A DNA stretch of 32,000 bases, taken from NCBI RefSeq assembly GCF_018398935.1, contig NZ_CP074694.1:1080001-1112000 (forward strand), in the 5' to 3' direction. Origin of the DNA: Telmatocola sphagniphila. Its GTDB lineage: Bacteria > Planctomycetota > Planctomycetia > Gemmatales > Gemmataceae. A program made the position numbers and the translations under genes. Every line of letters begins with the position of its first letter. The first letter of the stretch is position 1. A model generated the notes under the pieces. It did no database searches and was not told the origin of the DNA. It worked only from the letters and a program-made list of their open reading frames with translations. This document shows positions 6,412 through 23,321 of the stretch, piece by piece.

Positions 6412-6496
6412 AAATCTATCGAAGGTTTAAATCGGAAGAGGTTATTGATCGTAATTTATAAGGAACTGAAAACATGACCTGTTGAGGAATTTCTTC

Positions 6497-8212: not shown

Positions 8213-8262
8213 TCCTTGGCCACAAAATTCTTATCCGATATCTCAACCCGAAAGGGCCTCTC

Positions 8263-9909
8263 ATGCCGGTTAGTGTCTTTCGTTTTCAAATTTTCATGAT
8301 CACTGCTGCTCTCCTCACAGCCCCTCCCTGTCACTCCCTGGCGACGGAACCTGCCCCGCAAAAAGCCGAGATGGCCGGATACCTGCTCATCCCCCACAGT
8401 AAGGTCGATGCGAAATACAATGCCGGTTTCTCGATGTATGTCGCGGCTTGGCCGCTCCTGAAGAATTATCCGGGCCAGGAGTTTCAATCCGGTCTGCCGG
8501 GCACCTGGATGTTCTCTCAGTACGAAGGGACAAAGCCGAAGGATATCTACTCGGACATTGAAGGTGGGCTCGGATGGTGGCGCGACACTCGGTTCGCCAC
8601 CGAAACTCCAAAATTTATTATGGGCGGCGTTGCATTAAACTTCGTCGAATGGGCCAATGGTCCCGGGGCCGGCAAAGGTCGCGATTGGAATAAGCCTGCA
8701 GGGCACTACGCGATCGCGCAGCTCAGCCCGTGGGTGCTCTGGCCTCCCGATGGTTTAAATTTGAAGCGGGGAACTTCGGGCGAATTGTTCGGCTACGGAT
8801 ATCTGCCCTTACCCCTGACCAATCCTAAGAAAACTACTGCAGGCAAGGATGTCCCCACCGGAAATCAATGCTGGACGCTTTTTTTAAACACGGGAAACTT
8901 CAAAGGCCCGGTCACGTTCTTTCTCCCTTATTTCTGGTCGAAGCCGACTCTTGATTATCCCAAACTGGCGGGTATGTTTCTCGACACCCGGCCCTCTGAA
9001 CCCAACAAAGCAGTGCAAATGGAAACTCAGCATATCCCCGCTTATATAGCTCAGGATGCGAAAGGGGTTACCTTCGCTCGCGTTGCCACTACTCAATTTC
9101 CCAGTCAGCGCGAAGGCAACGCTCCCTTGATTCACCGCATGACGGCCTACAGCCGGTCAGCACTCTGGGACAATGTCGAAGCCTGGTTCGGTGGCGGGCC
9201 AACCGCCTCGGGGAAAGTGGATGACAAGGCCGCTTCCATACACACTTTTGAGAGCAAAGGCGGCGCTACCTGGCAGATATATTCTGCCAAGACGCCCCGT
9301 GAAAAGAAGGTGCCCATCGCCTGGAATTCTTTTGCCAACCCTGCGGCCCTAGATGAGATTACCTATGGATACCAATGGTCCAAAGAAGCAGTGACAACCT
9401 CGGAAAATAGCTCGGATTCACTGATCCGCCTTCCCGAATACTATCGTCTGGAAAAGGACAAGAGGGATCGGGACAAATGGGTAGTTGTTAATGAAAAGGA
9501 TGTGCCTTCTGAGACCGGTTTAGCCAATGTTTCATTTCCGAAACGACGCGGCCCGGATCGTCGGCCCTACCTCACACCGGAGGGACCGGAAAGTTCCTGG
9601 AAAAAGCCCGGACCGGCAGCGGGGCCATTCGAAGCTAAGCTTGAGGATGGAAGTGTGGCAACCTATTACTGGTATCGCTTTGCGGATCAACCTGCTTTGT
9701 TGAACGCGGATCTGTCTGGGGAAGAACGGGAAATTCTTCAGAAGCGAGTGGAACTGCTCCACAGGAATTGGACGAAAGACCGCGAGTACCTGCCACCTCC
9801 CAAGATTGGCCGGCTGGCTCAGTTAGATCCGGGGGTGATCGTAATTCCGCCCAAAGGGCTGGAATACGGTTACGTTCCGATTGTAACCCGACAATCTGCT
9901 CAGGAATGA
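8263..9909 (+). CDS. Secreted hypothetical protein (~548 aa)
   Basis: Long ORF 8119-9909. Met at 8263 gives the signal-like MPVSVFRFQIFMITAALLTAPPCHSLA. An alternative start ATG 8209 overlaps the upstream stop as ATGA. No family recognised. Confidence 0.7.
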   Translation: MPVSVFRFQIFMITAALLTAPPCHSLATEPAPQKAEMAGYLLIPHSKVDAKYNAGFSMYVAAWPLLKNYPGQEFQSGLPGTWMFSQYEGTKPKDIYSDIEGGLGWWRDTRFATETPKFIMGGVALNFVEWANGPGAGKGRDWNKPAGHYAIAQLSPWVLWPPDGLNLKRGTSGELFGYGYLPLPLTNPKKTTAGKDVPTGNQCWTLFLNTGNFKGPVTFFLPYFWSKPTLDYPKLAGMFLDTRPSEPNKAVQMETQHIPAYIAQDAKGVTFARVATTQFPSQREGNAPLIHRMTAYSRSALWDNVEAWFGGGPTASGKVDDKAASIHTFESKGGATWQIYSAKTPREKKVPIAWNSFANPAALDEITYGYQWSKEAVTTSENSSDSLIRLPEYYRLEKDKRDRDKWVVVNEKDVPSETGLANVSFPKRRGPDRRPYLTPEGPESSWKKPGPAAGPFEAKLEDGSVATYYWYRFADQPALLNADLSGEEREILQKRVELLHRNWTKDREYLPPPKIGRLAQLDPGVIVIPPKGLEYGYVPIVTRQSAQE

Positions 9910-10711
9910 CCGGTTAAGGCTAACCCAAAACAAAACCACATTGAATTACTCGTTCTGATGACAATAATCGCCCTGCTAACCAAGGCACCCCGTTCGTTCT
10001 CTGTTCGCCCGCATGGACCTTTGGGACGACCAGTTTGGGGGCGCCGAACTAGTGTTTGCTGCATTTTTACGCATCTTTCAGATCTATCTCAAACACTCCC
10101 GCGATCTAAACTCGAAGTTGCGGAGGTGGATGGTTCCCGCCCAGGCTGCTGAAGCAGAGATGTGGGAAGCGTTGACTAACGCAATAGGACTGAAGACCAT
10201 TGGAGTCGGGCTGCGCTACGCATCGCCCGACGGTGTCCCGGCGATGGGTGGTGTAGTCGAGTATGTCAACTAAAGTCCGTATGACGGACTGCATCGGATC
10301 GACAAGTCGGGGCTCACCGTAGCTGCTTTGGGAGTCGTCGATGGCGGCGGCTCGATCATGGTCGAGCTGAATCTCTATCTGTACGGTGATCCGACGGCTG
10401 AAATAGTCACCCATCAGACCCGGCTCTGAGACGAATGTTCTCAAAAACACTTCCCAATGCCGACTGAGGCGGGTCAGAGCGAATGAGCGAATATTTTGAC
10501 TGCGGCCGTTCGTTGATGTTGGTTGCACGAATTGGCATAGCAGTTTCGTATCGCAAAAATGGTCTGACACTGCCTATGAAACGCTTGAGATTTGAACCAC
10601 TTTTCGCCACTCGAAATAAGGAGTTCCATCGCTTATTCCGTGAGTTTGAGCGTCATTAAATTCGACTTGAGCACGCTTGTTGATCAGTAACTCGCGTGAT
10701 CATAATGAGAA

Positions 10712-10739
10712 AGCCCTTCGACGATCTCGCCGAAGGGCT
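10712..10739 (-). terminator. Hairpin (AGCCCTTCG / CGAAGGGCT) followed on the minus strand by TTTCTC; probable original tRNA-Pro terminator, now displaced to the attL side
   Basis: 9-bp perfect stem at 10712-10720 / 10731-10739, 10-nt loop. Lies about 15 bp downstream (minus sense) of the partial tRNA copy. Confidence 0.4.
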
Positions 10740-10753
10740 CATTTTGAAACAGG

Positions 10754-10800
10754 ATCGGGCCGATAGGATTTGAACCTACGACTTCTTGGTCCCAAACCAA
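10754..10800 (-). repeat. attL: duplicated 3' half of tRNA-Pro (anticodon stem to acceptor end)
   Basis: 10756-10800 is identical over 45 bp to 24961-25005 (47 bp if the preceding AT is counted). Sequence diverges immediately beyond. Confidence 0.9.
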
Positions 10801-10856
10801 AACGCATCCAATCGGAAACGCTGGAAAAAGTCGGATGAAAGCGATGGTGCAAAATG

Positions 10857-10877
10857 GTTTGTACCCCTGTTTGTACC
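10857..10877 (+). promoter_or_regulatory. Tandem GTTTGTAC repeats (12-bp period), candidate integrase arm-type sites, attL side
   Basis: GTTTGTACCCCTGTTTGTACC here, GTTTGTACTCCCGTTTGTACT at 24786-24806. TGGTGAAAAT also shared (10891-10900 / 24724-24733). Confidence 0.45.
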
Positions 10878-10960
10878 AGATCCGCGGATTTGGTGAAAAT
10901 CGGGGCTATCGTTCTGATTGCCGTGCGAGATACACAGCGGACGAATAGACAGGGCAGGGC

Positions 10961-11139
10961 GGAACGGGCGGGGGTGGGTGGCCCTAACTCGACAACCGAT
11001 CTGGTGTTCGGATGGAGTTCGCTCCGGACGGCTCGCCCTGGTGAAGCTTTCGCGGTTGCTACTTTTACGAGCATCACTTTAATTTCAGTCCGACGATCTC
11101 GCCAGTTTCCGGATTGAGCTACCCACCCCCGCCCGTTCC
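10961..11139. repeat. GC-motif module 1: inverted pair GGAACGGGCGGGGGTGGGTGGCCC (10961-10984) / GAGCTACCCACCCCCGCCCGTTCC (11116-11139)
   Basis: Arms are reverse complements apart from the outermost bases. CGCCCTGGTG at 11034-11043 lies between them. Confidence 0.85.
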
Positions 11140-11220
11140 ATCGTTGCCTATTGCCTAATCGCCGCCTTCGTTTCACAATAAGTTCAGTTTCTTCTCAATC
11201 ACACTTTCAGAGGCCCAACG

Positions 11221-12003
11221 ATGAAACCGCTCGCAATCGCTTCCCCTTTGCTCTTCCTGTTCGCATCGCTCGCCAGCGCCGAGAATCCGCCCGAATTCAA
11301 TTACAAGCTTTGTGAGAAACCAAATTATCTCTCCGAGTCCCACGGCAAAGAGATGATCCTGAAAGCCAAATTCAGAATCGGCCAGCCCGGTATCATCGCG
11401 GTTTACGAACGCAAGAACAAGAAAACGAATCGAGAGGATTACCCGGCCGAGATCCCGGTGAAGTTCTACAGCCCGGAAGCTGAAAAGAACTTTCGGGAAT
11501 CGATCATCGCCAGCAACAAAAGGAAAAAGGATCTGGTGGCCGAGCTGGTAGCGAAAGCGGATTTTTGCAAAGAGGATGAAGTTCTTTCGAAAGACTATGT
11601 TGTTCCGGATGCCCTCTTGCCCAAAGCCAGCATTACGCCTCGGTTTCAATCGCTTCAAAGTGGCTGGATGCGAATGCAGGAAGGCGCGGCCGAGTCCGAT
11701 GCAATCATGGAAAAGATCTTGGCGGATGCCCGGAAAAAGGGACAGACCGAAAAGCGAAAGTACTACGGTGCATTCGGTTTCGTTGATGCAAAAGTGAACG
11801 CAATCGCGCCGGAGAAGGAAGATAAGCCGATTGAGATTCCCACCGAGACGGCCGCGAGTTCGAAACTGTTTCTCGCGAAAGCCAAATTGCGGAACGATGC
11901 TGATAAAGCTGAAGGAATCAAAATCTTGAAAATGATTTTGGATCAGTACCCGGGAACCAAGGCAGCTAAGGAGGCCGCTGAGATCTTCGACGATTCAAAA
12001 TAA
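11221..12003 (+). CDS. Secreted hypothetical protein (260 aa), helical/TPR-like C-terminus
   Basis: Signal peptide MKPLAIASPLLFLFASLASA. Lys/Glu-rich. No family recognised. Confidence 0.6.
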   Translation: MKPLAIASPLLFLFASLASAENPPEFNYKLCEKPNYLSESHGKEMILKAKFRIGQPGIIAVYERKNKKTNREDYPAEIPVKFYSPEAEKNFRESIIASNKRKKDLVAELVAKADFCKEDEVLSKDYVVPDALLPKASITPRFQSLQSGWMRMQEGAAESDAIMEKILADARKKGQTEKRKYYGAFGFVDAKVNAIAPEKEDKPIEIPTETAASSKLFLAKAKLRNDADKAEGIKILKMILDQYPGTKAAKEAAEIFDDSK

Positions 12004-12028
12004 CCGGAGCAGGTTTCCAGTCCAGGCA

Positions 12029-13327
12029 TCAGGGCCCAATCGCCCCGCCTTGTCGCGCCGCCGCTTGAACCGCTCCGCCCATCACTTGAACAGTGGCATT
12101 GATTTCATCAAGAGTTTTTTGCATCTGATCCTGCTTCATGTCCTCAGCGCCTAACGACTTGTTGAGTCTCATCCATGTATCACTCAAGCTTTCGAACTGA
12201 ACCGAGCCTACGCGAGTAAAACCTTTGTTCCCGCCGTTGTCTTGCCGAGCTTTTTCCCTCTCTTTAAGTCCTGCAAGATAATTCGAAATGTCACGCAGAG
12301 GATTTTTGGATGTATCTACTCCGATCCCGTTTGCAAATCGGTTGGCCATATCCCCTAATCCTTTGATGTGAGAGATCCCACCGCCCTGAAGATCGGCATC
12401 CCAATTCTTCATTACCAAATCGAGCGTTCCGGGTTTCATAATTCCTAGATTTTCTCCCATCGCGGCCATTGTTGCAGCAATCGCGTTGGTAGCTTGTTTG
12501 TACTGCCGGACCATCCAATTCAATTTATCGATGACGAAGTTGACCGCTTTAGTTGCCCAATCCATGAGATGATCGGTCCAAGACTTGTTAGCGTCGTCCA
12601 TCGCGTTTGAAGTTTTTTCGGATTCAGTGTCGAAGAATCCGAACATATAAGCGCCGGCCGCAACGAGCCCCCCAATAGACGCAACTGCCAAACCTACCGG
12701 ACCTAAGAAAGCTGAACCGATAGCAACAGCCATCCCCCCAATTCCTTCCACCACCGCGAAGATTGCAGATCCCAAACCAACGAAAGAGCCGATGACCGTT
12801 GCGACGACAGAAGCAACCCCAGCGGCCGCGACAACGAATCCGGAAACCGCTGTAGCCATCACCACCCATTCCGTTGCCGCTTCGACGGTTGCCTTATCTA
12901 AACTTTGGAACCACTTCACAAAATCAATAACGGCATCGGTTGCCATTCGCACATACGGTGCCAGTGAGTCTCCAACCACTCTTGCAGCATATTCGAGAGC
13001 TGCCCCCAATTGCTGCATTTCAACCGTGCCAGCGCCCGCCTGAGACAAGATCCCGCCGATACCTAAAGTCCCGCCGAGTGTGAATTTGGATGCTGCCGAA
13101 GTGATGCTCGATATCGACTTGGAAACCGATTCGATAACCTGATTCGCCGAACGGCTGAAGGAAGCAACGGCCGCTTGCGATCTCGCGATTGCAGCCGCAA
13201 AGAGGTCTGCCGCTTTACTCGACTTGCCGAGCTTGCCGCCAATGCCGTCGATATCCGATTGTACTTTCGAAACTCCGTTGGTTACGAAGTCGACAGTCAT
13301 TTCCGCAAGTTGCTCTGAAGTCGCCAT
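12029..13327 (-). CDS. Phage tail tape-measure-like protein (432 aa; function tentative)
   Basis: Ala/Ser-rich coiled N-terminus. Central Gly-zipper hydrophobic block (VVAAAGVASVVATVIGSFVGLGSAIFAVVEGIGGMAVAIGSAFLGPVGLAVASIGGLVAAGA) typical of TMPs. Strong SD (GGAGGG) 5 nt upstream of the ATG. Confidence 0.5.
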   Translation of the reverse strand: MATSEQLAEMTVDFVTNGVSKVQSDIDGIGGKLGKSSKAADLFAAAIARSQAAVASFSRSANQVIESVSKSISSITSAASKFTLGGTLGIGGILSQAGAGTVEMQQLGAALEYAARVVGDSLAPYVRMATDAVIDFVKWFQSLDKATVEAATEWVVMATAVSGFVVAAAGVASVVATVIGSFVGLGSAIFAVVEGIGGMAVAIGSAFLGPVGLAVASIGGLVAAGAYMFGFFDTESEKTSNAMDDANKSWTDHLMDWATKAVNFVIDKLNWMVRQYKQATNAIAATMAAMGENLGIMKPGTLDLVMKNWDADLQGGGISHIKGLGDMANRFANGIGVDTSKNPLRDISNYLAGLKEREKARQDNGGNKGFTRVGSVQFESLSDTWMRLNKSLGAEDMKQDQMQKTLDEINATVQVMGGAVQAAARQGGAIGP

Positions 13328-13487
13328 GATTCCCTCCGGTGATTCGAAGTCTCTTTCACATTGGTTCCAACTGTAACAAGTTCGCCATAAATCCCCAAAC
13401 CGCCCGCCTGGTCAACCGGCCAAGGCGAGAGCATTGGTTCAAGTTTCGCCGCGATCAGCCGCCCTTGCTAGTCACCAGCTCGCACGG

Positions 13488-13721
13488 TTACTCTTCCGCG
13501 TCGAGAACCGATCCCATGAATTCTTGAAGAGCTTTAATCGATTCGGCGTCATTCCCGAAAATGCTATTCAGAAAGCTCAACCAGCTTTTGGGTTTGCCGC
13601 CAGTGGGCTCGTTAATCGGTCTGCACATGCTACTTTCCTTTTTAAAGTTACTTGTTAAAAGTTCGAAGTTTCTATCCCATGCCGAGCATCGCAGTGCGAG
13701 ATCGGCCAGATGTTGATTCAA
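13488..13721 (-). pseudogene. Fragment of a P4/D5-type primase-helicase (region just upstream of the P-loop)
   Basis: KSWLSFLNSIFGNDAESIKALQEFMGS aligns with EWIKFLQSIWPKDPEAIDTLQEVSGY of the 634-aa protein. The ORF stops before any Walker A. No P-loop in other frames downstream. Confidence 0.6.
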
Positions 13722-13821
13722 TCCCGTTTGCCACTTTGTCGCCTATCGCATTTCTGAATCCCTCCCATCGGTTGCTAGGTTGCTTTGGTCGATCTTTCAC
13801 GCCGGCCGCAAGAGCAATTCA

Positions 13822-13965
13822 CCGCGGGCGGGGTGGGTTGCCCTGATGGTATCCAGTTCGGTCTACCGGTCGCCTGGTGGTCGCCTGGTGAAGATCCGAT
13901 CACTCGCCGCCCGCTTCCCCCGTTTCCCCTGGTGTCTGGAGTGGGCCACCCACCCCCGCCCGTTC
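13822..13965. repeat. GC-motif module 2: CCGCGGGCGGGGTGGGTTGCCC (13822-13843) / GGGCCACCCACCCCCGCCCGTTC (13943-13965)
   Basis: Inverted pair. Tandem CGCCTGGTG at 13871-13879 and 13882-13890 lies between the arms. The right arm lies inside the 3' end of CDS 13900-14394. Confidence 0.85.
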
Positions 13966-14394
13966 ATCCGCCGATGTTTCACCCGACACCGGTTTCTTTC
14001 GCTCATCCACAAGCCCTAAATACTCACGGATCCGCTCCAGAGGTGGCAAGTGGATCCGCAGCCCTAGTAAATCGTCAATCGCTCGCTGGGCCATAATTCG
14101 GTCACGTGGCTTCGAGTTCGGATCGGAAATCACGGATGTATAGACGGCCAGCGATTCCGCACGTTGTTCCCGCCGAGCTTTCTGGATCTCCAGGACATTC
14201 CAATCGCGGGCGGTTCTTATCCAGCCCTGAATTGTCGAAGAGAAAATATCAGTACCAAATTTTTCGCGCACCTCCCGCTTGATTTCCTCCGTGGTGAAGT
14301 GCCGGCCGAGCATCGTTTGAACGAACTCAACACGCTCGCGAACTTGCTCCTGGTGAACAGCTCGCCTAGTCTTTTGGCCGTTGTCTTTTGCCAT
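13900..14394 (-). CDS. HTH protein, possibly terminase-small-subunit-like (tentative)
   Basis: 164-aa ORF. The pattern TTEEIKREVREKFG...STIQGWIRTARDW...KARREQRAESL...DRIMAQRAIDDLLGL resembles TerS-type N-terminal HTH plus helical oligomerisation region. The C-terminal 22 aa are encoded by GC-motif module 2. Confidence 0.45.
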   Translation of the reverse strand: MAKDNGQKTRRAVHQEQVRERVEFVQTMLGRHFTTEEIKREVREKFGTDIFSSTIQGWIRTARDWNVLEIQKARREQRAESLAVYTSVISDPNSKPRDRIMAQRAIDDLLGLRIHLPPLERIREYLGLVDERKKPVSGETSADERAGVGGPLQTPGETGEAGGE

Positions 14395-14478
14395 AAATCG
14401 CCGCCTTCAATTACCCTTCGCGCGCGTGAGGTATTCTGATCACAGTTGAACCGTCGCAACTCTCTCGATCCCAGGCAG

Positions 14479-14773
14479 ATTTTCAGCCCGCCAGAAGGCC
14501 CATTTTCAGCCCTCACAGATTCGTTTTGGTCCCATGGGTCCCATGTGGCCCCATGAATCCGAAAACCAGCTCAAATCCTGTGGCCGAGCTTCTAAGTACC
14601 GCTGAAGACAACCAAGCTAGGTGTCTAACTAATTAATTTTTGTTTTTCTCTACTTCATGGGTCCCATAGGACCAAACCTCAAAAGAGCAATTCTAAGTAC
14701 TGAAATAATCGGGGTTTACGCATGGCTCCATGAAGATCGTTCCATGAGGCCAATCATGGGGCCAAAAACGGTT
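14479..14773. promoter_or_regulatory. Iteron-rich, AT-centred intergenic region: candidate replication origin for the adjacent primase-helicase
   Basis: GGTCCCATG x2 and GGCCCCATG in tandem (14528-14555), GGTCCCAT (14660-14667), GGCTCCATG (14724-14732), inverted CATGGGGCC (14755-14763). ATTTTCAGCCC x2 (14479, 14502). TTCTAAGTAC x2 (14590, 14691). AT-rich core 14626-14655. Confidence 0.45.
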
Positions 14774-16678
14774 TCATGAGTCCTCAGATGGTTTGGCTAC
14801 CGGCTTACGAAGTCTAATTCCCTTAAAAAATTTCTTTCGTGTCTTTCCCTCGTCTATGAAATCGCCGTTTTTGGCCCCATCACTTTCGGGATCTGGGGCG
14901 TAAGTATCGCGAATAGTTTTGATCGCGTTGAAACACGATTTTAAATTGCGGCTGAAAAGGTTTCTTGGAAGAGGTTTGAGACCGGTTTTAATCGCGTATT
15001 CTTGCCATCGTAGGTAAACGTCAGCACAAGTTTCCGTTGCTTCTTTGTCGTCAATAAAGCAGTACTCTTCCACGAATTCAACAATCGGATTGGAGAGTGC
15101 TCTGAAGTCATCCATGTCATCCTGACCCGAACTCGGTTGTAGAAAATCCTTACCTTGTTCAATTCGTTCCTGAAGTCGTTTTAAGCCGTCCAAACTCCAC
15201 CAGAAAATAGAAGGAAGTTCCTTCAAAAGTTTCTCAGTTAAATAACGATCTTCACGCCCTAAAAATGAGGTTGTAGTTCGAAGCACAATGAATCTCGAAG
15301 CCAGCGCCAACGCCGAGTCGGGAAGCCGCGGCAGTTCATTGCTTGCGACTAAAATTCTCGCACCCAATCGCACTTCTTCGAGCGTACTCAAATACTTCCG
15401 CTCGATATCAATCGGATCGTCGCCGCTGATTGCCAGCAAACGATTCGTGATCAACTTGTCGTCGTAACGTCCGGAGATCCGCATATCGGGAAAAATAGCA
15501 AGCTTTTTGCCGATCCAGCCACTAAGCCCGAACGGGTTTGACAATTGGCTCATGCTCGATGCCAGGCAGTTGGAATGCCCCATCAGTGCTTGCAAGACCC
15601 GGCAGATTGTACTCTTTCCACTTCGAGGCGGACCTAAAAGAAAAAAGATCTTGTGGCATCGCGTTTGCCCGGACAAGAGATAGCCAGACACTTCCTGAAG
15701 AGTGTCGATTGCTTCTGGGTCCTTCGGCCAAATGGATTGAAGAAACTTTATCCATTCCGTTGGGTGAGACGATTCGATTCTAAAGTCACCAGTGAGAGCG
15801 TAATCGAGTTTGTGAAGGTTGAAAAAATCGGGTGACAATGGGGCTGGCTTCACTTCCTGACTCTTTAACAAATCGCTCAGCTTTAATAGGCCGTTTGAGA
15901 ACACGACGCAATCCGACATGTCTTGACCAGCTTTGGGGCCGCGAAGATAGCAGGGTGGTTCAATTTCTGAAGGTACTCTGGTTTTCGCACTAAGGGCTTG
16001 CATGGCCGATGAAATGTTATTCGTCGTTACTGGCGGCGGGGTGGGTGGTTCACCGTTGCCGGACCATGCCGCGATTTTCTTCTTGTACTCGGCTTCAATT
16101 AGTTTGTTGGCAACTTCCGTCAGCCGTGGTCGAAGATCTGAAACGGGTGTCAGTTTGTACCTTTCATCGGAGTAAATGTAAAATTGCTCCCTCCAATAAA
16201 CGACTTTATCCGTTCTTAGAAACTCGTTCGCAATCCTCATCGGATCATTTGGCTTGCGAAAAATCCCCCCGTTCTCTTTGAGATCTCTCTGGGCTTCTTC
16301 TCGCTTTTCTAAGTCCCGCTTCAGCGGATCTAGTGAGGGAGTAGTTCCCGCGATGTGTCCAAGAGAGTCTTCCAAAGATTTCAACATGTTCTCGGAGTGG
16401 CCACCCACCCCCGCCCGTTCATCCGCCGAGCTGGTGTTGTGAGGTGTAAGCGAGATTCCGTCCCCGGCAGCCGTGAATTGGGCGGGTGGGTTGCCATTCC
16501 CAAAGTTCGCCGTCTGATTTATTTTGCTCAGCATTCGAGCTAGAACGCGAGATCTGAAAGCAGAATCCGGATCGCTGCTACTTGAATTTGAATTTGACTT
16601 TGACTTTGTGTGTTCATCATGTACCATTAAATCGTCCTTTCCGTAGTCCGCGTTTGTTTTTCCGACTTGGCCACACAT
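14774..16678 (-). CDS. Phage/plasmid primase-helicase, P4-family C-terminal / D5-like SF3 NTPase
   Basis: 634 aa. W-x-x-FL...LQE-x-x-GY-LLSG motif followed by Walker A GPPRSGKST, then AIFPD and ILVASNE (SF3 motifs B and C). No obvious Toprim/AEP catalytic domain recognised in the N-terminus. Confidence 0.85.
   Translation of the reverse strand: MCGQVGKTNADYGKDDLMVHDEHTKSKSNSNSSSSDPDSAFRSRVLARMLSKINQTANFGNGNPPAQFTAAGDGISLTPHNTSSADERAGVGGHSENMLKSLEDSLGHIAGTTPSLDPLKRDLEKREEAQRDLKENGGIFRKPNDPMRIANEFLRTDKVVYWREQFYIYSDERYKLTPVSDLRPRLTEVANKLIEAEYKKKIAAWSGNGEPPTPPPVTTNNISSAMQALSAKTRVPSEIEPPCYLRGPKAGQDMSDCVVFSNGLLKLSDLLKSQEVKPAPLSPDFFNLHKLDYALTGDFRIESSHPTEWIKFLQSIWPKDPEAIDTLQEVSGYLLSGQTRCHKIFFLLGPPRSGKSTICRVLQALMGHSNCLASSMSQLSNPFGLSGWIGKKLAIFPDMRISGRYDDKLITNRLLAISGDDPIDIERKYLSTLEEVRLGARILVASNELPRLPDSALALASRFIVLRTTTSFLGREDRYLTEKLLKELPSIFWWSLDGLKRLQERIEQGKDFLQPSSGQDDMDDFRALSNPIVEFVEEYCFIDDKEATETCADVYLRWQEYAIKTGLKPLPRNLFSRNLKSCFNAIKTIRDTYAPDPESDGAKNGDFIDEGKTRKKFFKGIRLRKPVAKPSEDS
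16032..16050. repeat. Degenerate GC-motif copy (GGCGGCGGGGTGGGTGGTT)
   Basis: Reverse complement AACCACCCACCCCGCCGCC. Encodes EPPTPPPV within the primase-helicase. Weaker match than the other copies. Confidence 0.4.
16399..16495. repeat. GC-motif module 3: GGCCACCCACCCCCGCCCGTTC (16399-16420) / GAATTGGGCGGGTGGGTTGCC (16475-16495), wholly inside the primase-helicase CDS
   Basis: Inverted pair about 55 bp apart. Translated as ADERAGVGG and GNPPAQF. Confidence 0.8.
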
Positions 16679-16708
16679 TTGACCGATGTGTGGCCTTTTT
16701 TCGTTTTC

Positions 16709-18016
16709 CTAGGTGTTCCTTACTACTGCTGCAGCTCTATCGAGTAATCTCGGCCGCCACGGTTCCGACGTTGCCAATGTTTCGATATTCTTGGACCTCC
16801 CGATAAAGCCCCCGCGGGATTGCAGCCGCGCATGACCAGCCAGGGCCCATGCGAGGACTGCTTCCCGTTCACTCACGAGCCGTTTCAACAGTGACGGATC
16901 GTCTGGTAGTTCTTTTGTCGTTTTCACATGCGTGAACTTGTTGCCGAGATCTTGGCCAGGGCGAAACGGCTTGGTAAGAGTTTCCGCCACGATGATCATC
17001 TTCGTGCTCGATTTCGAGTTGCGTATCGTCGGCTTTCTATCGCTACTCGGAAGCAACGGTTTTCTCTCGATGGTCATGGGCCGATTCATGGAAAATTTGA
17101 TCAGGTTGTTAATGATCCGATTTCGCAGTGAGAAACTTTTCGGCATGTAAAAGTATTTGCAAAAAACCGCCATGTGTGGCTGCATGAATTCAAAGATCCA
17201 CGACTTACCCAGTTGGTCAACGAAGGGATAGCAAGCGTTTTCGTCGCCAAGAAGTATTCGAAGCATTCGGCAAATCAAGTCTGTGCTTGATTCCGGGCCT
17301 GTTAAAACAAACATGTTTCCGTAGCTGGTGTCACTGGTCAAAACGTAGCTGAAAAGCTCTTGAACTGTTTCCGCTGTGTTGCCATCGACGACGTGGCCGA
17401 GGGCTTCGAGCCAGGCTGGACATCTGCCAGACTTCAAATCTGGACTAACCCGGATGCCGTTCAGATTGAAGAGCCGCGGCCGCGTCGGGTTATCATTGGA
17501 GCAACCCACCCCCGCCCGATTCCCCTTCGAACTGGTGAACCGGCCGGATTCGATAGCTTCCTTCAACTCGTGCGGGTCGAATAGACCTTCCGATGTGACG
17601 ATCTTTTTGGAAAGGTCTATCCTGCTTTTAGTGCCGAGAAAAAACGGGGGTTCAAAAGTCCCGTCAACGTACGTTCTGACCATCAACGCATTTTTGACGG
17701 CATCCACGAGCCGCCGTTGAACTATTGGCTTTGTGAATTGAAACTCTGGATGACACTTCAGCTTCAATTCGAATTCCGCCTCGATAACATTATTGCTACA
17801 TGACGCTATCAATCCGGCCGCTTCAGAGTTGAGCATTTCCCGGTATCCAACTCTGTCGGGTTCTTGGATCCAAAAACTTCCCCGCCAGTAAACAAGCTGT
17901 TTGAATTCCCGGATAAAGTCCGCAATCTTTCCGGGTGGGGACCATGTTTTAATTGCGATAATCTGTTCTTTTTCCGCCGCTGCCACTGTTCCGTTCGTTC
18001 GTTTGTTCCCGACCAT
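16709..18016 (-). CDS. Degenerate paralogue of the primase-helicase lacking Walker A
   Basis: 435 aa. Shares VYWR..F.I and IEAE(F/Y) N-terminal blocks and the AWLEALG...VQELFSYVLTS motif. Has GPESSTD where the neighbour has GPPRSGKST. Confidence 0.75.
   Translation of the reverse strand: MVGNKRTNGTVAAAEKEQIIAIKTWSPPGKIADFIREFKQLVYWRGSFWIQEPDRVGYREMLNSEAAGLIASCSNNVIEAEFELKLKCHPEFQFTKPIVQRRLVDAVKNALMVRTYVDGTFEPPFFLGTKSRIDLSKKIVTSEGLFDPHELKEAIESGRFTSSKGNRAGVGCSNDNPTRPRLFNLNGIRVSPDLKSGRCPAWLEALGHVVDGNTAETVQELFSYVLTSDTSYGNMFVLTGPESSTDLICRMLRILLGDENACYPFVDQLGKSWIFEFMQPHMAVFCKYFYMPKSFSLRNRIINNLIKFSMNRPMTIERKPLLPSSDRKPTIRNSKSSTKMIIVAETLTKPFRPGQDLGNKFTHVKTTKELPDDPSLLKRLVSEREAVLAWALAGHARLQSRGGFIGRSKNIETLATSEPWRPRLLDRAAAVVRNT
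17499..17522. repeat. GC-motif copy GAGCAACCCACCCCCGCCCGATTC (single, inside CDS 16709-18016)
   Basis: 31 bp (17500-17530) identical to 18989-19019. Translated as GNRAGVGCS. Confidence 0.85.
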
Positions 18017-18019
18017 GTT

Positions 18020-18292
18020 TCACGTTGCCCTTTCCCGTTTATTAGTCCTTCGATGTGAGGACTGAACCGGCTTGCATCCGCGTTCAATCCAGTTGTGGAT
18101 TTCAGAGACTCGCCATCGTCGCATTCTGCCGATGTGAATTCCCTTGGGCATTTTCCCGGTATTCGCCATAAGCAGCACATGACGCCAATGACACTTCAGA
18201 ATCTCGGCCACTCCCTTTACATCGACCATGGCCGGGGTTTGAACGGTTTGCATTTGCCACCTACCTTTCATTAAGCGGGAACACTCTAACAC
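18020..18292 (-). CDS. Excisionase/AlpA-like HTH DNA-binding protein
   Basis: VDVKGVAEILKCHWRHVLLMANTGKMPKGIHIGRMRRWRVSEIHNWI fits the MerR-superfamily excisionase/AlpA pattern. Stop is 3 bp before the next gene's ATG. Start may be Met14 (18253). Confidence 0.7.
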   Translation of the reverse strand: MLECSRLMKGRWQMQTVQTPAMVDVKGVAEILKCHWRHVLLMANTGKMPKGIHIGRMRRWRVSEIHNWIERGCKPVQSSHRRTNKRERAT

Positions 18293-18371
18293 ATTGCGCC
18301 GCGATCACCAAACGGCGCAGGGGGGTTATGAAGTCTGAAGGTTTTCGAGGAATTATTGAGGCTTAGTAATC

Positions 18372-18393
18372 GTGCGGGCGGGGTGGGTAGCCC
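18372..18393. repeat. GC-motif copy GTGCGGGCGGGGTGGGTAGCCC (intergenic, between two HTH genes)
   Basis: Reverse complement GGGCTACCCACCCCGCCCGCAC. Confidence 0.8.
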
Positions 18394-18428
18394 AAAGGAT
18401 ACCGCGACGGAAAGAACTTCAGGAGAGC

Positions 18429-18713
18429 TTACGCTTCGACTCGCCCGCGCTTTCGAGATCGGACTGGCTTCGCGCCGGCCGCAATCCATTCTTTGAATTC
18501 GCCTAGATGCCAACGTCTCAACCCGCCGATCTTCAATCCAAATGGGATCTTCCCTTCGTCTGCCATCCGATACACTGTTCGCCAAGTGCATCCAAGTAGT
18601 GCGGCTATGTCGTTCACAGTGACGAGCTCGCCTGTGGATTTGGGAACGTTCGTTTCATTTGCTTTGCGGGGTGCGCGCAGAACTGTCGTCGTGGTCATTC
18701 TCTTGGACCTCAT
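18429..18713 (-). CDS. Excisionase/AlpA-like HTH DNA-binding protein (paralogue)
   Basis: LVTVNDIAALLGCTWRTVYRMADEGKIPFGLKIGGLRRWHLGEFKEWI. Confidence 0.7.
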   Translation of the reverse strand: MRSKRMTTTTVLRAPRKANETNVPKSTGELVTVNDIAALLGCTWRTVYRMADEGKIPFGLKIGGLRRWHLGEFKEWIAAGAKPVRSRKRGRVEA

Positions 18714-18988
18714 AAAAGATTGAAAGCGTTAGTTTCTTGGTCTGAATGATGGATTAAGAAAGGAGTGTAACAAATGGGGATTGATTCCCAAGTGATCCGC
18801 TCTAACGCTTCAGGGGATTTGGCTTATATGACGCCTAGATGAAACGTTGGAAGTATTATGATTATGAAGCTGACACGAGTCAAGTTTAGTTGTCGCAAAT
18901 TGACAATTTTCCGCATAGCGGACTGGGACACCTGTGTGGTGAATTGCTCTGGATGCTACCAGTCTGATCGGTTTCCGGGCTCGATGAT

Positions 18989-19122
18989 AGCAACCCACCC
19001 CCGCCCGATTCCCCTTCGACGGCTCGCCCTGGTGGTATCGGGTTGGTTCTGATCATCGCCCTGGTGGACACTGCCGCCCGGGGTGAGAAGTCACCAGCGA
19101 CGAACGGGGCGGGTGGGTAGCC
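18989..19122. repeat. GC-motif module 6: AGCAACCCACCCCCGCCCGATTC (18989-19011) / GAACGGGGCGGGTGGGTAGCC (19102-19122)
   Basis: Inverted pair. CGCCCTGGTG at 19025-19034 and 19067-19076, plus an inverted TCACCAGCGA at 19091-19100, lie between the arms. Confidence 0.85.
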
Positions 19123-19168
19123 TTGGGTCATCGGCACATGCGCGGCGCACGCGGGGATATCTCGCCAG

Positions 19169-19393
19169 TTACTGGCTTTTGGGCTTAAGGAATGGGATAG
19201 GTCTACCGATCTCTTCCAGCTCTTTGATCGCGGCTTTTCGAAGTTTCTCCCGCACCCATGCCGATAGTTCGACACCGGACACTTCTGCCGCCGACACAAA
19301 AGTTTCTTTTTCTTCGGGAGTCAAGCGGACCTGGAGCACTTCCGCCCGAGTTCGAAAAACTTTTGGCTTCTTAGATTCCGTCTTTTTCTTCAT
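19169..19393 (-). CDS. Ribbon-helix-helix DNA-binding protein (CopG/DUF1778-antitoxin-like or MobC-like)
   Basis: 74 aa. VLQVRLTPEEKETFVSAAEVSGVELSAWVREKLRKAA matches the RHH beta-strand plus two-helix pattern. Confidence 0.65.
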   Translation of the reverse strand: MKKKTESKKPKVFRTRAEVLQVRLTPEEKETFVSAAEVSGVELSAWVREKLRKAAIKELEEIGRPIPFLKPKSQ

Positions 19394-19399
19394 GGAATC

Positions 19400-19466
19400 A
19401 TTGTACTGCCATTGAAATGACAGTACTTAGGAATTTTCTTGACTGTACTGACAATGGCAGTACAAT
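19400..19466. promoter_or_regulatory. Divergent promoter/operator region with nested palindromes
   Basis: Perfect 15-bp inverted repeat ATTGTACTGCCATTG (19400-19414) / CAATGGCAGTACAAT (19452-19466). Four GTACTG half-sites form palindromes at 19403-19426 and 19445-19463. Plus-strand TTGACT (19439-19444)-N16-TACAAT (19461-19466). A mirrored TACAAT on the minus strand lies 6 bp upstream of the RHH ATG. Confidence 0.55.
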
Positions 19467-19555
19467 ACCCATAGTTACTGAAAAGAGCGAAGCCAGCCGA
19501 AGATTGCACCCTTCGACTGGCTTCTAACCCAAAAACTTGTTAGGAGTTTTCGAGT

Positions 19556-19792
19556 ATGGTCAACATTTTATCAACCAAATCCGCTTCGAGTAAGCTTCCC
19601 GTGGTTCTTCGACCGATCACCGCCGGCGAATTCGCTGTAGCCGTCGCCAATGACCTTGAAATTGGCCGGGTATGCGAACGCTCAACCGGGTGGTCTGCAA
19701 TCGGTTTGAGGGGCTATATCGGCATGTTCTCGTGCCAAGCCGCGGCTGTTGCAGCACTGGCCCTGAAGATCTCCGTCGATTCCCCTTTCTAA
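19556..19792 (+). CDS. Hypothetical protein (78 aa)
   Basis: ORF downstream of the plus-strand promoter. No family recognised. Confidence 0.35.
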   Translation: MVNILSTKSASSKLPVVLRPITAGEFAVAVANDLEIGRVCERSTGWSAIGLRGYIGMFSCQAAAVAALALKISVDSPF

Positions 19793-19836
19793 TCAACCCA
19801 TCATTCGCCCACTCTTCTTAATCCACCGTACATCCA

Positions 19837-21141
19837 ATGAGAACCACAATGCATACTTACACTCGCACCAATTGGCTGAAAGAACCAACCGCACTTCTGC
19901 GTTACCTTACCCGCCAGAATGTTTTCCGGCTTCTCGATCCTTACGAGTTTGCCAAAGGTCGAACCGCTCAAGAATTTTGGGACGATGCGGAATACGAATA
20001 TCTTCTTACCGGTCTTTTGCGTGTCGCGGACGTTCGAAGGGAAGGCCCGTTGCCCTGGAAACACTACGCGGAAGCTTCCATAGCGGTCTGTGAGCTTGCC
20101 CTGACTTATTTCGCTAACGATCTGGTCCCGGGTGTCGAAACGCTCCAACTGGCGAAAAAATATCTTGTAACGCCTACTCGGGCTCTGGGTAAAAAGATTG
20201 CTCGTAACGCGGTTTTTTTGGCAGATTCCGACCATGACCACGGCGGAAAATTGCTTCTCAAATCGACTGCAAGCTTGCATGAGGCGATTGCGTATGCATC
20301 TTTCTGCACGCTCCGCAGTTCAATCCAACTCTCCCATGCGGAACGACGTTCGCTTTCCGAAGTGGAACAATTCAAACTGAATGAACTTCTCGGCAAGTCT
20401 TATGCATTATTACCCATTGAACGTCGTTCGACTTTGATCTGCCATGAGCCGGCATTCAATTTGCCAATCCAATTAATGAGCGAAGTTTTTGGATTCTGTA
20501 ATGATGCATTCGATGATCGATCCGCAATATTATTCGAATCAAAAGCATGCCAGATTATACGAGATTTAATCCCATGTCCCTGGCACGAAGACAGAGATCA
20601 AGAGGAATTTGAGAAACACAATCGATTTGTAAAGCATCTGGAATTCATAGATGTTAAAAAATCCACTATCGAAAAGCTCACGCGCACGATACCAGTAGTC
20701 ACATGGAATCAAGATGAGTCTTTAGCTCAGTTTCTGGAATGGTCCGTCAGATCGCTCTGGTATCAGGATTCCGATCTTTGCAAAAGCAAATTGAATGAAG
20801 CTTTCGAAGGATCGTTGAATTTCTTTAAAAAAAATCAGCATTTGTCTGACGAATGCATTTCCATTTGCAGATACATCGCTGAAGGCTTTTCGGAAGCAGA
20901 ATCAGTTGAATCTTTGTTGGCGAGTGCGGCCACGATCAAAAAGGTAATGGTCCCTGTCTACGAAAAACTGAAGCTCGAAACGACTGCTAGCAATGGTAAG
21001 TACGGTTACAAACCGGACTACAAAAAATGTTGCGAAAATCTCTTGGTTCGAACCTTGAGAAATCGCCTACCTATCCCGTGGACTGAATGCCCTATCCCAG
21101 CGTCCGCCGAAATCGAACAACTGAGAGAATTGGCGGCTTAA
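19837..21141 (+). CDS. Hypothetical protein (434 aa), island cargo of unknown function
   Basis: Long ORF, predicted mostly helical. Recurrent P-C/I-P-W motifs (LIPCPWHEDRD, LPIPWTECPIP). GC falls to about 37-43% over 20400-20640 by hand count. Confidence 0.7.
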   Translation: MRTTMHTYTRTNWLKEPTALLRYLTRQNVFRLLDPYEFAKGRTAQEFWDDAEYEYLLTGLLRVADVRREGPLPWKHYAEASIAVCELALTYFANDLVPGVETLQLAKKYLVTPTRALGKKIARNAVFLADSDHDHGGKLLLKSTASLHEAIAYASFCTLRSSIQLSHAERRSLSEVEQFKLNELLGKSYALLPIERRSTLICHEPAFNLPIQLMSEVFGFCNDAFDDRSAILFESKACQIIRDLIPCPWHEDRDQEEFEKHNRFVKHLEFIDVKKSTIEKLTRTIPVVTWNQDESLAQFLEWSVRSLWYQDSDLCKSKLNEAFEGSLNFFKKNQHLSDECISICRYIAEGFSEAESVESLLASAATIKKVMVPVYEKLKLETTASNGKYGYKPDYKKCCENLLVRTLRNRLPIPWTECPIPASAEIEQLRELAA

Positions 21142-21200
21142 TCGAGCCGATGCCTTCGTTTACTCGCCCGTTTTTTATTCAGAAAGTGAGATTAGATCCC

Positions 21201-21443
21201 ATGGCCAATGAATCGGAACCAAAGTACGTCACGGCGGCGGAAGTCGCCAAGCAACTGAAAGTGTCGGTAATCGCCGTTCATCGCTGGATGACCCACGGGA
21301 AAAAGGGGATAGTCCTACCCGCGATCAAGCCAGGAAGAGTTTGGTTGACCACTCAGAAATGGCTGGATGAATGGGCCAAGAAAGTTACGCCGGGGATGCC
21401 CATGCAATTTGGAAGTCGTACTGAGAGTTATCATGCCAGCTAA
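21201..21443 (+). CDS. Excisionase/AlpA-like HTH DNA-binding protein
   Basis: YVTAAEVAKQLKVSVIAVHRWMTHGKKGIVLPAIKPGRVWLTTQKWLDEW. Overlaps the integrase start by 11 bp. Confidence 0.65.
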   Translation: MANESEPKYVTAAEVAKQLKVSVIAVHRWMTHGKKGIVLPAIKPGRVWLTTQKWLDEWAKKVTPGMPMQFGSRTESYHAS

Positions 21444-22512
21444 AACGAACTTCCCAAAATTGAGGTTCTTGAAATCCCGTGGGGTGTACTCCTATTACCA
21501 CGACGGCCGGAGATTCTACCTAGGACGCGATTACGACAAAGCACTTGAACTGCACCGAGCCGCAATCCTTCGAATCAATTCCAACATTGCGAATCCTGCC
21601 CCCATACGAAAAACTGACCTGTTAATTTCGGAAGCGGTTCAGTTTTACTTGGAGGGCCCGGTAAGCAAAATGGGCAAATCCGATGCCCACCGCAATTTCT
21701 TTGCGATTAAGACACTGGTGTTGTACTGCGGAGCGATGCCCGCCGAGTCGTTCCGAGTCCAGCACGTTGAGCATATCACAAATGAATTCTGCAAAATGCG
21801 TGCTCGAACGCGAACCTACAAGAGCAACGTCTGTGACGGTCGCCCATACAGCCGACAGTACGTTACCAAACTTCTAGGCTGCATCCGGCAATGCTGGCGA
21901 TATCTGGCCCTGCATGATTACGTAAGTGCGGATTGTGCGGCGAAAGTCACTCTGGCCGTGCGAGCGGCGAAAAAGAACGCATCTCCGAGTTTGCCACCCA
22001 CCCGCCCCGTCTCAGCTGAAGCCGTGCGAGCTACTGTGCAATTTCTTCCGCCCGCGATCGCGGACATGGTAAGCGTTCAGATTGCTACCGGTATGCGAAC
22101 CGGCGAGCTGGTGAGCATGACTTGGGAAGCTATCGACAGTTCGGGCTCAACATGGATTTACGCCCCGCCAAAGCACAAGAACTCCTGGAGGGGACACCAG
22201 CGTCGAATCTACCTGCCTGATGAACTTCAGGAGATCTTGCGGAAGTATCCGAATGCTGGGGCAGGTCAAACACTTTGGGGAGTACCGTTTGATCGATACT
22301 ATCGGCACCTTCGAACGGCTCAAGAAAAGGCAGGGGTAGAACCTTGGAGACCGTACCAGCTCCGACACGCGGCCGCTACTGAGATCCTGAAACGGAAAGG
22401 GGCAGAAGCGGCGAAGTTTCTACTGGGACACGCGGGGGGTGGGTTGCTCAAGCTGTACACCGGGAGCGAACCGGAGAATATGTCACGTTCGGGCAAACTA
22501 AATGCCGTCTGA
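21433..22512 (+). CDS. Tyrosine recombinase / integrase 1 (~359 aa)
   Basis: GMRTGELVSMTW (Arg I), YQLRHAAATE (H-x-x-R), LLGHAGGGLLKLY (His/Tyr box). Start taken at Met 21433 rather than ORF start 21367. Confidence 0.85.
   Translation: MPAKTNFPKLRFLKSRGVYSYYHDGRRFYLGRDYDKALELHRAAILRINSNIANPAPIRKTDLLISEAVQFYLEGPVSKMGKSDAHRNFFAIKTLVLYCGAMPAESFRVQHVEHITNEFCKMRARTRTYKSNVCDGRPYSRQYVTKLLGCIRQCWRYLALHDYVSADCAAKVTLAVRAAKKNASPSLPPTRPVSAEAVRATVQFLPPAIADMVSVQIATGMRTGELVSMTWEAIDSSGSTWIYAPPKHKNSWRGHQRRIYLPDELQEILRKYPNAGAGQTLWGVPFDRYYRHLRTAQEKAGVEPWRPYQLRHAAATEILKRKGAEAAKFLLGHAGGGLLKLYTGSEPENMSRSGKLNAV
21991..22011. repeat. GC-motif variant TTGCCACCCACCCGCCCCGTC inside integrase 1
   Basis: Encodes LPPTRPV. 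Variant with CCCGCCCC order. Confidence 0.55.
22431..22449. repeat. GC-motif variant CGCGGGGGGTGGGTTGCTC inside integrase 1 (His/Tyr box)
   Basis: Reverse complement GAGCAACCCACCCCCCGCG. Encodes HAGGGLL. Confidence 0.5.
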
Positions 22513-22564
22513 TCACGGGCGGGTATCCACTTCGAACGAAGACAATCAACGAAAAGGAACCACG

Positions 22565-22855
22565 ATGGAAGAAAGATTAATTGAAGAGGGTTTGCTTTCA
22601 CTTCAGGAAGTTGCTCGGCGCTGTGGAGTATCGCCCGGGATGCTCTGGCGTCTCTGCAAGCAAGGGAAGCTGGAATGTGTACGAACATCAGCTAACGGCC
22701 GATGGTTGACCAGTTTGAAAGCAGTAACGCGGTACCTGGCAGGGGTAAAAGCAGACATGGCCTCCGTGAAGACTGCGAATGAAATGGATATCGAACAACG
22801 GGCGGCTATTGCAACTGCGAAAGCGCTGGCGATGTGTGAGCGGAAAAAACGTTGA
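22565..22855 (+). CDS. Excisionase/AlpA-like HTH DNA-binding protein
   Basis: LLSLQEVARRCGVSPGMLWRLCKQGKLECVRTSANGRWLTSLKAVTRYL. Start at Met 22565. Confidence 0.65.
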   Translation: MEERLIEEGLLSLQEVARRCGVSPGMLWRLCKQGKLECVRTSANGRWLTSLKAVTRYLAGVKADMASVKTANEMDIEQRAAIATAKALAMCERKKR

Positions 22856-22864
22856 CCAGCGGCA

Positions 22865-23157: not shown

Positions 23158-23321
23158 ATCGCCATGCCTTTTTTCTCACTTCACCCTTTCAGCCGTCCAC
23201 CATTTCCACCCGCATTGATTAACTCAATCTGTGCAATTATAATTCCGATGACCTTTGGGCCGGGCGATGCGGGGAACTGGAAAGCCCCCTCGCCAGGTCC
23301 GCTTTCCAGAAAGGTCTCTGC

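Follow-up and report, generated by a model that had tools for sequence, protein, structure and literature searches.

A phage-derived island in a tRNA-Pro gene of Telmatocola sphagniphila, tentatively read as a phage satellite

Is an integrated element that carries its own replication module but only two virion-related genes a phage satellite, the remains of a prophage, or a mobile element of another kind? This question is raised by an island in the chromosome of Telmatocola sphagniphila, a planctomycete of peat bogs (Planctomycetota, Gemmataceae), located in the 32,000-nt stretch of DNA that was analyzed (RefSeq assembly GCF_018398935.1, contig NZ_CP074694.1, positions 1,080,001 to 1,112,000 of the forward strand), hereafter called the window, whose coordinates are used throughout. 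A first-pass annotation, made from the sequence letters, had assigned the locus to a PVC-type (Planctomycetes-Verrucomicrobia-Chlamydiae) genome and had proposed that its gene content resembles that of a satellite rather than a prophage. The former statement was right, since the host phylum is Planctomycetota; the 634-, 432-, and 164-aa proteins of the island are identical to T. sphagniphila KIH39_04690, KIH39_04675, and KIH39_04685, encoded on its 6.59-Mb chromosome. With respect to the latter, we consider the island a phage-derived integrative element, and life as a helper-dependent satellite is the interpretation that we tentatively favor, at just under an even chance.

The ends of the island could be set by its attachment (att) sites. 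ARAGORN and Rfam revealed a single tRNA gene, tRNA-Pro(tgg), at 24960-25033 on the minus strand, and the 47 nt at its 3' end (24959-25005, attR; the feature as a whole spans 24959-25033) recur as a direct repeat with 100% identity at 10754-10800 (attL). Because these perfect tRNA-Pro repeats mark both ends, the island extends from 10,754 to 25,005 (~14.2 kb) and is inserted in the tRNA-Pro gene. The span to which it had earlier been confined, 12029-18713, comprises one operon, and the att-bounded element is more than twice as long. Its size falls inside the range of satellites (~10-18 kb; PMC10085698), and its GC content is 51.3%, versus 50.8% in the flanks.

The gene order previously described for the minus-strand operon was confirmed, namely, two helix-turn-helix (HTH) genes, a 435-aa protein gene, the 634-aa helicase gene, a repeat-rich region, and the genes for the 164-aa and 432-aa proteins. 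Only two virion-related proteins are encoded in the island, a probable small terminase subunit (TerS) and a short tape measure protein (TMP). Both had been guessed from their general pattern, and both guesses held up, with independent support being found for each of the two assignments.

The 432-aa protein (KIH39_04675; 12029-13327, minus strand) matches the TMP family PHROG_1272 at 1.1e-13, and TIGR01760 gives a partial match to its conserved core. A word-index protein search returned only the protein itself, and a HMMER scan of 1.84 billion representatives yielded 163 hits, ~45 of which are full-length relatives (350-470 aa, 30-35% identity), together with weaker matches to long TMPs. For these relatives we recovered four distinct genomic contexts, on five contigs of which two are near-duplicates, and each context is a phage-like string of genes. 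In a 40-kb contig, L096, a Mu-F-like head protein is followed by small genes, a pair encoding 179 and 46 aa, the 427-aa homolog, and a conserved ~320-aa gene, and the pairing of the TMP with the ~320-aa gene is common to L092, L093/L094, and L095. In addition, the family profile of the 432-aa protein matches solved TMPs, i.e., 9d93 at 1e-5, 80alpha gp57 (6v8i) at 8e-4, and 9h4p at 2e-3. Based on this homology, the tail-module synteny of the relatives, and the matches to solved structures, we identify the 432-aa protein as a full-length short TMP. The tail synteny of its relatives has not been kept in the island, where the TMP gene stands alone and is convergent with a gene for a 260-aa protein.

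The 164-aa protein (KIH39_04685; 13900-14394, minus strand) is probably TerS, as judged from one genomic context and a weak likeness of fold. Of 5.8 billion proteins searched, a single one, P0123, proved to be a real homolog; it has 59% identity and is encoded on a metagenome contig of 984 bp. The gene that comes after P0123 overlaps it by 25 nt, and the first 135 residues of its product match PHROG_38 ("terminase large subunit") at 1.7e-16. P0123 therefore lies directly upstream of the N terminus of a large terminase subunit (TerL), which is the canonical position of TerS. The AlphaFold2 (AF2) model of the 164-aa protein has helices at residues 10-30, 35-46, 52-90, and 96-110, with a predicted local distance difference test (pLDDT) score of ~90 over residues 10-110 and a tail predicted to be disordered from residue 133. 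Its best PDB match was the PaP3 small terminase (E 0.5), and four more TerS structures appeared in the top 20, none of them significant; a BFVD search returned three matches with E <1e-3 and at least 10 named small terminases in the top 50. Hence, the structure searches favor small terminases, albeit weakly. Comparison of the 164-aa profile with PDB sequences gave nothing meaningful, an alignment scan of IMG/VR and JGI metagenomes with this protein yielded no relatives, and tblastn of the 164- and 432-aa proteins against 50,697 cultured phage records found no match.

The replication module precedes these two genes in the operon. Its 634-aa protein (14774-16678, minus strand; KIH39_04690, annotated as 617 aa) matches DUF5906 at 2.6e-15, Pox_D5, and PHROG "DNA primase" families at 1e-51, and it exceeds the cut-off of TIGR01613 ("phage/plasmid primase, P4 family, C-terminal domain"), with 125.9 versus 108.7 bits. 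By these family matches it is a superfamily 3 (SF3) helicase with a P4-alpha C-terminal type, representing the helicase part of P4-alpha-type proteins, and its nearest relatives are only 36% identical. The 435-aa protein (16709-18016, minus strand) is a divergent paralog with 26% identity, in which the Walker A motif has been destroyed (GPPRSGKS to GPESSTD). Since neither protein has a detectable primase catalytic domain of the archaeo-eukaryotic primase or Toprim type, the earlier description of an SF3 primase-helicase pair was overstated; one intact SF3 helicase is there, the primase domain is not, and the partner is a paralog that has lost Walker A. The N-terminal ~110 aa of the 634-aa helicase are not conserved and harbor two copies of a dispersed repeat described below. 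More specifically, the first ~97 codons of its open reading frame (ORF), at 16385-16678, are of low complexity and without conservation in homologs. Translation may start at Met98 (~537 aa), which would make this repeat pair intergenic like others.

Between the 164-aa and helicase genes lies a repeat-rich intergenic stretch (14394-14774) that also contains tandem repeats. The window has 40 matches to CATGGRVCC, and 13 of them, including five of the six exact ones, fall within 14528-14778 (250 bp). The repeat unit is the palindrome GGNCCCATGGGNCC, and its clusters flank a stretch at 14635-14714 with a GC content of 0.38. This origin-like region (14520-14780), with its clustered CATGGRVCC/GGNCCCATGGGNCC units and AT-rich dip directly downstream of the helicase gene, shows that the iteron region reported earlier is real. 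A similar layout is found at the origins of Staphylococcus aureus pathogenicity islands (SaPIs) and of phage-inducible chromosomal islands (PICIs), in which iterons surround an AT-rich region beside the initiator gene.

Beyond TerS and the TMP, no capsid, portal, TerL, tail-tube, tail assembly chaperone, or lysis gene was found among the island ORFs, and tblastx against related phage contigs detected no fragments of other structural or lysis genes in the island. The absence of such genes, already claimed from the sequence letters, thus holds, and the set by which an intact prophage is recognized (TerL, portal, capsid, tail tube, and lysis genes within the att bounds) is not present.

The integration genes lie at the end opposite to the operon, as had been stated, and both encode tyrosine integrases. 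The 381-aa integrase (21367-22512, plus strand) and the 477-aa integrase (23322-24755, plus strand), the latter of which adjoins attR, match Phage_integrase at 1.6e-11 and 3.3e-13, respectively, and are unrelated outside the catalytic region. A promoter-like site is located upstream of the second one, at 23215-23243. Five HTH_17 proteins are encoded in the island, one of them sub-threshold. Two belong to the minus-strand operon, i.e., a 94-aa protein of the HTH_17/excisionase family (18429-18713; E 2.5e-11, with TIGR01764 excisionase above its cut-off) and a 90-aa DNA-binding protein (18020-18292; E 2.6e-6). The idea of two AlpA-like HTH genes is therefore right as to the genes; as to the family, the Phage_AlpA Pfam match is only sub-threshold, with an E value of 0.096, and the proteins match HTH_17/excisionase. 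On the plus strand, a 118-aa HTH_17-like protein (21087-21443) has a match below threshold, and a 117-aa HTH_17 protein (22502-22855) has a family match. A candidate repressor is the 74-aa ribbon-helix-helix (RHH) protein at 19169-19393 (minus strand), whose gene diverges from the rightward operon and which is NikA-like (28.3 bits versus a cut-off of 27) and matches TacA-type antitoxin families equally.

We also observed two strong palindromes between the RHH gene and the rightward operon. That at 19400-19466 overlaps a promoter-like site (TTGACT-16-TACAAT), and that at 19489-19524 resembles a bidirectional terminator or an operator. Together, they are probably the genetic switch of the island.

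Signs of decay and mosaicism are found in the same element. A 77-aa ORF at 13488-13721 (minus strand), between the TerS and TMP genes, contains a fragment of a third SF3 helicase (BLASTP E 5e-8 to the 634-aa protein). Its C-terminal part corresponds to residues 295-338 of that helicase and is cut just before the ATPase domain, and it is closer to the helicase of another planctomycete locus, L228 (50% identity), than to the island helicase. The helicase fragment, the degenerate paralog, the second integrase, and the altered TerS tail indicate that the island was assembled or reduced through several recombination events. Elsewhere among planctomycete genomes, HTH_17 and D5-like helicase genes are paired without nearby phage genes, as in L228. 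A helicase-based search for related loci in GTDB representative contigs found nothing. One metagenome contig, L229, carries at 4558-17117 a large serine recombinase, small genes, the closest relative of the island helicase (36%), and a Terminase_2 small terminase, which is followed by a PKD-domain protein, and not by TerL, before the contig ends; this locus may be another small satellite-like element.

The most unusual feature of the island is a dispersed 15-nt repeat, ACCCACCCCCGCCCG, which contains the most repeated 11-mer of the window. Across the window, nine copies occur at no more than one mismatch, compared with 0.06 expected, and 16 at no more than three edits. All 16 lie within 10965-24720, and the flanks (17.8 kb) contain only one marginal three-edit match, at 26704. 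All but one of the eight perfect copies lie on the plus strand irrespective of gene direction, and all but one of the eight imperfect ones on the minus strand. Twelve copies form inverted pairs whose members are 61-421 nt apart. The pair at the left end (10965-10979, minus; 11121-11135, plus) is non-coding and lies 165-335 nt inside attL, and the next (13825-13838, minus; 13948-13962, plus) spans the 3' end of the TerS gene and encodes the disordered C-terminal tail of its product. Further pairs are located at the 5' end of the helicase ORF (16403-16417, plus; 16479-16491, minus and degenerate), in the divergent control region (18993-19007, plus; 19105-19118, minus), within the first integrase gene (degenerate copies at 21996, plus, and 22431, minus), and upstream of the second (22871-22885, minus; 23140-23154, plus). 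The motif scan located the other copies in the helicase ORF (a weaker one, 16037-16050, minus), in the 435-aa gene (17504-17518), between the two HTH genes (18375-18388, minus), and in the part encoding the C-terminal tail of the second integrase (24706-24720), 239 nt inside attR.

Within genes, the repeat takes the form of an in-frame insertion. By comparison with its paralog, the 435-aa protein has a 13-aa insert at the copy, and the C-terminal tail of the TerS-like protein, which is not conserved, is made up of the repeat; copies are also situated in the N-terminal extension of the helicase, likewise not conserved. The core of ACCCACCCCCGCCCG is free of stop codons in all six frames. The sequences flanking the copies fall into subfamilies, with 13938-13974 matching 16394-16430 (37 nt), 17500-17530 being identical to 18989-19019 (31 nt), and 13914-13968 resembling 23106-23160 over 56 nt at 80%. 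Such duplicated flanks imply that the copies arose by duplication or recombination and not by convergent selection alone. An independent metagenome assembly (GCA_024510185.1) contains a 459-bp contig, L002 (JANFBR010882146.1), that differs from the window by three single-nucleotide polymorphisms and covers 16763-16394 and 13974-13850, joined exactly across the 37-nt repeat, with a predicted in-frame helicase-TerS fusion of 107 aa (P0124). The junction stems either from a natural deletion of 2.46 kb or from chimeric assembly at low coverage. Collectively, the 15-nt repeat appears to mark recombination junctions.

Several roles of the repeat are possible. It may provide arm-type integrase sites or recombination sites, as copies lie near attL (at 165-320 nt) and attR (at 239 nt) and junctions occur at copies, or it may be an element-wide operator by analogy with the stoperators of phage L5, even if its orientation does not track transcription. 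Recognition sites for TerS (pac) and a tiny repeat resembling miniature inverted-repeat transposable elements are also possible. Three other explanations were set aside. The data lend no support to a simple tandem integration in which cores were retained, given that no internal relic of the 47-nt att core was found; folding of the repeat pairs as single strands was not clearly better than that of shuffled sequences (z -0.7 to -2.1); and an origin as a tRNA 5' fragment was dropped, as ARAGORN and Rfam give tRNA-Pro alone.

Outside the island, searches with ACCCACCCCCGCCCG gave 89 single chance matches and no enriched contig in IMG/VR, at least 120 single chance matches in GTDB representatives (high-GC genomes, with no Telmatocola among the matches listed), and nine unrelated single matches in JGI metagenomes. 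The repeat has no Rfam match, and the relatives' loci L228, L229, L095, and L096 contain no analogous dispersed repeat. A Logan contig from the strain's own reads spans five copies without inversion. Two Logan contigs, L226 and L227, were considered as independent relatives and rejected, because both come from the same strain; L227 is 100% identical, is broken only at the 31-nt repeats, and gives no evidence of inversion.

How do these observations bear on the nature of the island? Its intact att sites and integrase, its autonomous replication module, and the presence of exactly two virion functions, both with precedent in satellites, would be explained if it lives as a satellite. We postulate that infection by, or induction of, a helper siphovirus would then lead to excision through the integrase and an HTH_17 protein, after which the island helicase would drive replication from the island's own origin. 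The island TerS would steer the helper TerL to package island DNA, and the island TMP would take the place of the helper TMP, so that island particles would acquire chimeric tails, as in PLE11. A number of findings weigh against this proposal. The 164-aa protein has no profile-HMM match in any profile library searched, the genomic context that supports its assignment is that single 984-bp contig, and its homology to P0123 stops at about residue 130, where a repeat-encoded tail begins. The third-helicase fragment between TerS and TMP, the paralog without Walker A, and the replacement of the TerS C terminus by repeat sequence are all signs of decay, and L002 possibly represents a helicase-TerS deletion in a natural relative. 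No capsid-morphogenesis or helper-interference gene was detected in any island ORF with Pfam, PHROGs, NCBIfam, or PADLOC, and, unlike in PLE, no tail assembly chaperone lies beside the TMP. No second island with the same gene set emerged when GTDB representatives, JGI metagenomes, and IMG/VR were scanned, which leaves a single instance of this pairing of TerS and TMP. Finally, the PICI model of SatelliteFinder treats a tail-protein match as a "forbidden" component (PMC10085698), which the island TMP is, even if post-processing can rescue elements with one forbidden hit (PMC10085698). Compared with this model, the island has the integrase and the primase-replicase (of which the helicase part is recognizable) and no recognizable capsid-morphogenesis or interference gene; among the remaining core components, Phage_AlpA stays below its cut-off and TerS is without a profile match.

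It is quite possible, if short of an even chance in our estimation, that the island is instead a defective prophage remnant or a composite of related temperate elements, which would have lost the block from TerL to the tail chaperone and the tail and lysis block after the TMP, leaving TerS and the TMP behind. The gene order (integrase, early HTH regulators, replication, TerS, ..., TMP) is colinear with that of a temperate siphovirus minus two blocks. In all four contexts examined, TMP homologs elsewhere follow small genes (with a head gene in one) and precede the ~320-aa gene, neighbors that are absent here, and TerL follows TerS in the homolog, whereas here the P0123-like sequence gives way to repeat-derived sequence. 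A remnant would thus account for the siphovirus colinearity, the orphan TMP, the missing TerL gene downstream of TerS, and the signs of decay, including the helicase fragment, the degenerate paralog, and the two unrelated integrases; likewise, the 37-nt direct repeat coincides with the apparent helicase-TerS deletion junction in L002. Yet no fragment of other structural genes is left, the att repeats are perfect, full-length ORFs are kept for the integrase, the helicase, the TerS core, and the TMP, and the origin-like region has remained intact. Moreover, a simple internal deletion in a prophage would not leave a helicase fragment between TerS and TMP. We conclude that the claim of a satellite rather than a prophage is partly supported, by the gene layout, the att sites, and the combination of TerS with a TMP, and that a remnant or composite fits the signs of decay equally well.

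We regard it as improbable that the island is a non-phage integrative element, such as a mobilizable island or a tycheposon-like element moved by conjugative mobilization or vesicles, with TerS and the TMP as incidental captures. The NikA-like match of the RHH protein points in that direction, as do the HTH_17 and D5-like helicase pairs that occur without phage genes in other planctomycetes (L228) and the presence of a probable secreted cargo protein. The RHH fold is generic, however, and TacA-type antitoxin families fit it as well; no relaxase, coupling protein, or oriT is recognizable in the island, and the two captured genes are both of virion or packaging type and are placed in the replication operon.

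If the satellite interpretation is followed further, the island would represent the first satellite lineage described in Planctomycetota, with TerS and a substitute TMP as its hijack kit and the 15-nt repeat as a cis-acting signature, a proposal that we consider doubtful in this full form. Within it, the repeat could supply arm-type sites of a recombinase, or sites of recombination, at which modules are shuffled and deleted and a prophage is converted into a satellite; or else a repressor or TerS could recognize it throughout the element. Nearly all phage satellites catalogued so far come from Proteobacteria and Firmicutes, and >99.9% of detected PICIs belong to these two groups (PMC10085698). 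In the full-text literature searched, no paper contains both "phage satellite" and "Planctomycet", and the latter term is absent from PMC10085698, in agreement with the initial remark that satellites are essentially undescribed for planctomycete-like hosts. A true satellite would combine PICI-like logic with PLE-like tail substitution, without recognizable capsid interference, in a phylum for which the literature searched contains no satellite, and it would extend the remodeling of tails, and not of capsids alone, by satellites (PMC12987554) to a distant phylum and to siphovirus-type helpers. If it is a remnant only, the island is a clean example of prophage reduction toward a satellite-like gene set. 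With its duplicated flanks, in-frame insertions, and junction in L002, the repeat offers a concrete, testable case of how short repeats may promote the recombination of modules, or regulation, within a mobile element. With strain SP2 of T. sphagniphila in culture and its reads publicly available, excision and packaging are directly testable.

The remaining genes and the surroundings can be described briefly. The 260-aa protein (11221-12003, plus strand) has an N-terminal signal-like hydrophobic segment and no family match (one source names it a TPR protein), and it is probably cargo. Two proteins of 78 and 434 aa (19556-21141, plus strand) have no family matches, and the AF2 model of the latter is unusable (pLDDT 35). 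Relative to window positions 19286-22619, L226 (run SRR14506983) has two single-base indels that alter the ORF calls of the 434-aa protein and the 381-aa integrase, and PGAP calls the 434-aa ORF as 307 aa, with L227 (run SRR14506984) being identical to the window; these two gene models are therefore uncertain. Rfam gave nothing but the tRNA in the window, and PADLOC found no defense system. The flanking genes are of ordinary host type, encoding an IS1380 transposase, SASA esterases, a cytochrome-c/DUF6797 protein, a thioredoxin-like protein, a radical SAM enzyme, and an aconitase. The IS1380-family transposase lies at 418-1947 (minus strand), and at least six near-identical variants, some of them multi-copy, are annotated in the same genome, so that this insertion sequence looks active or recently expanded.

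With the aim of placing the island among known systems, we compared its repeat and gene set with those of characterized elements. The stoperators of mycobacteriophage L5 and Cluster A are an asymmetric 13-mer present in >20 copies throughout the element, including non-promoter positions (PMC9283540), and their element-wide dispersal resembles that of the 16 island copies. They follow the direction of transcription, whereas seven of the eight perfect island copies keep one absolute orientation across opposed operons, and the island copies differ further by their duplicated 31-56 nt flanks and their in-frame insertions in ORFs.

P4-like satellites share with the island a TIGR01613 helicase and integration into a tRNA gene by a tyrosine integrase, and the island helicase is expected, like theirs, to bind iteron-type origin repeats. 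Of the P4 markers psu, delta, sid, and epsilon, none was found in the island with Pfam or PHROGs, the likeness being confined to the alpha-like helicase domain, which here comes without a primase domain. For packaging, P4 relies on the helper terminase, which acts at cos, and P4 is not known to encode a terS or tmp gene.

A TMP encoded by a satellite has precedent in other systems. In PLE11 of Vibrio cholerae, the TMP replaces that of the helper, which results in chimeric, shorter tails, and putative tmp genes have been described in capsid-forming PICIs (cf-PICIs) and PLE-like elements (PMC12987554); EPIPs of Mycolicibacterium combine TerS, a TMP, and an integrase (PMC12822802). Like the island, PLE11 and EPIPs have their own TMP, with no sequence relationship found. 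PLE differs from the island in having a tail assembly chaperone, a baseplate hub, and a large serine recombinase, and EPIPs differ in their serine integrase and in having genes for capsid, scaffold, and adaptor proteins.

The layout of the island can also be set beside that of the PICIs, with the origin of SaPIs taken as the reference for the origin. The island departs from them in its TMP gene and two integrases, in its regulator, whose match is to HTH_17 rather than to AlpA, and in being without a recognizable capsid-morphogenesis or interference gene. In PICIs, TerS redirects packaging (PMC10085698). PICIs such as SaPIs and EcCICFT073 have the same ~10-15 kb size and site-specific integration and likewise contain no lysis or tail-tube genes (PMC10085698), and they present the same order of integrase, HTH regulator or excisionase, replication protein with a downstream origin, and terS (putative in the island).

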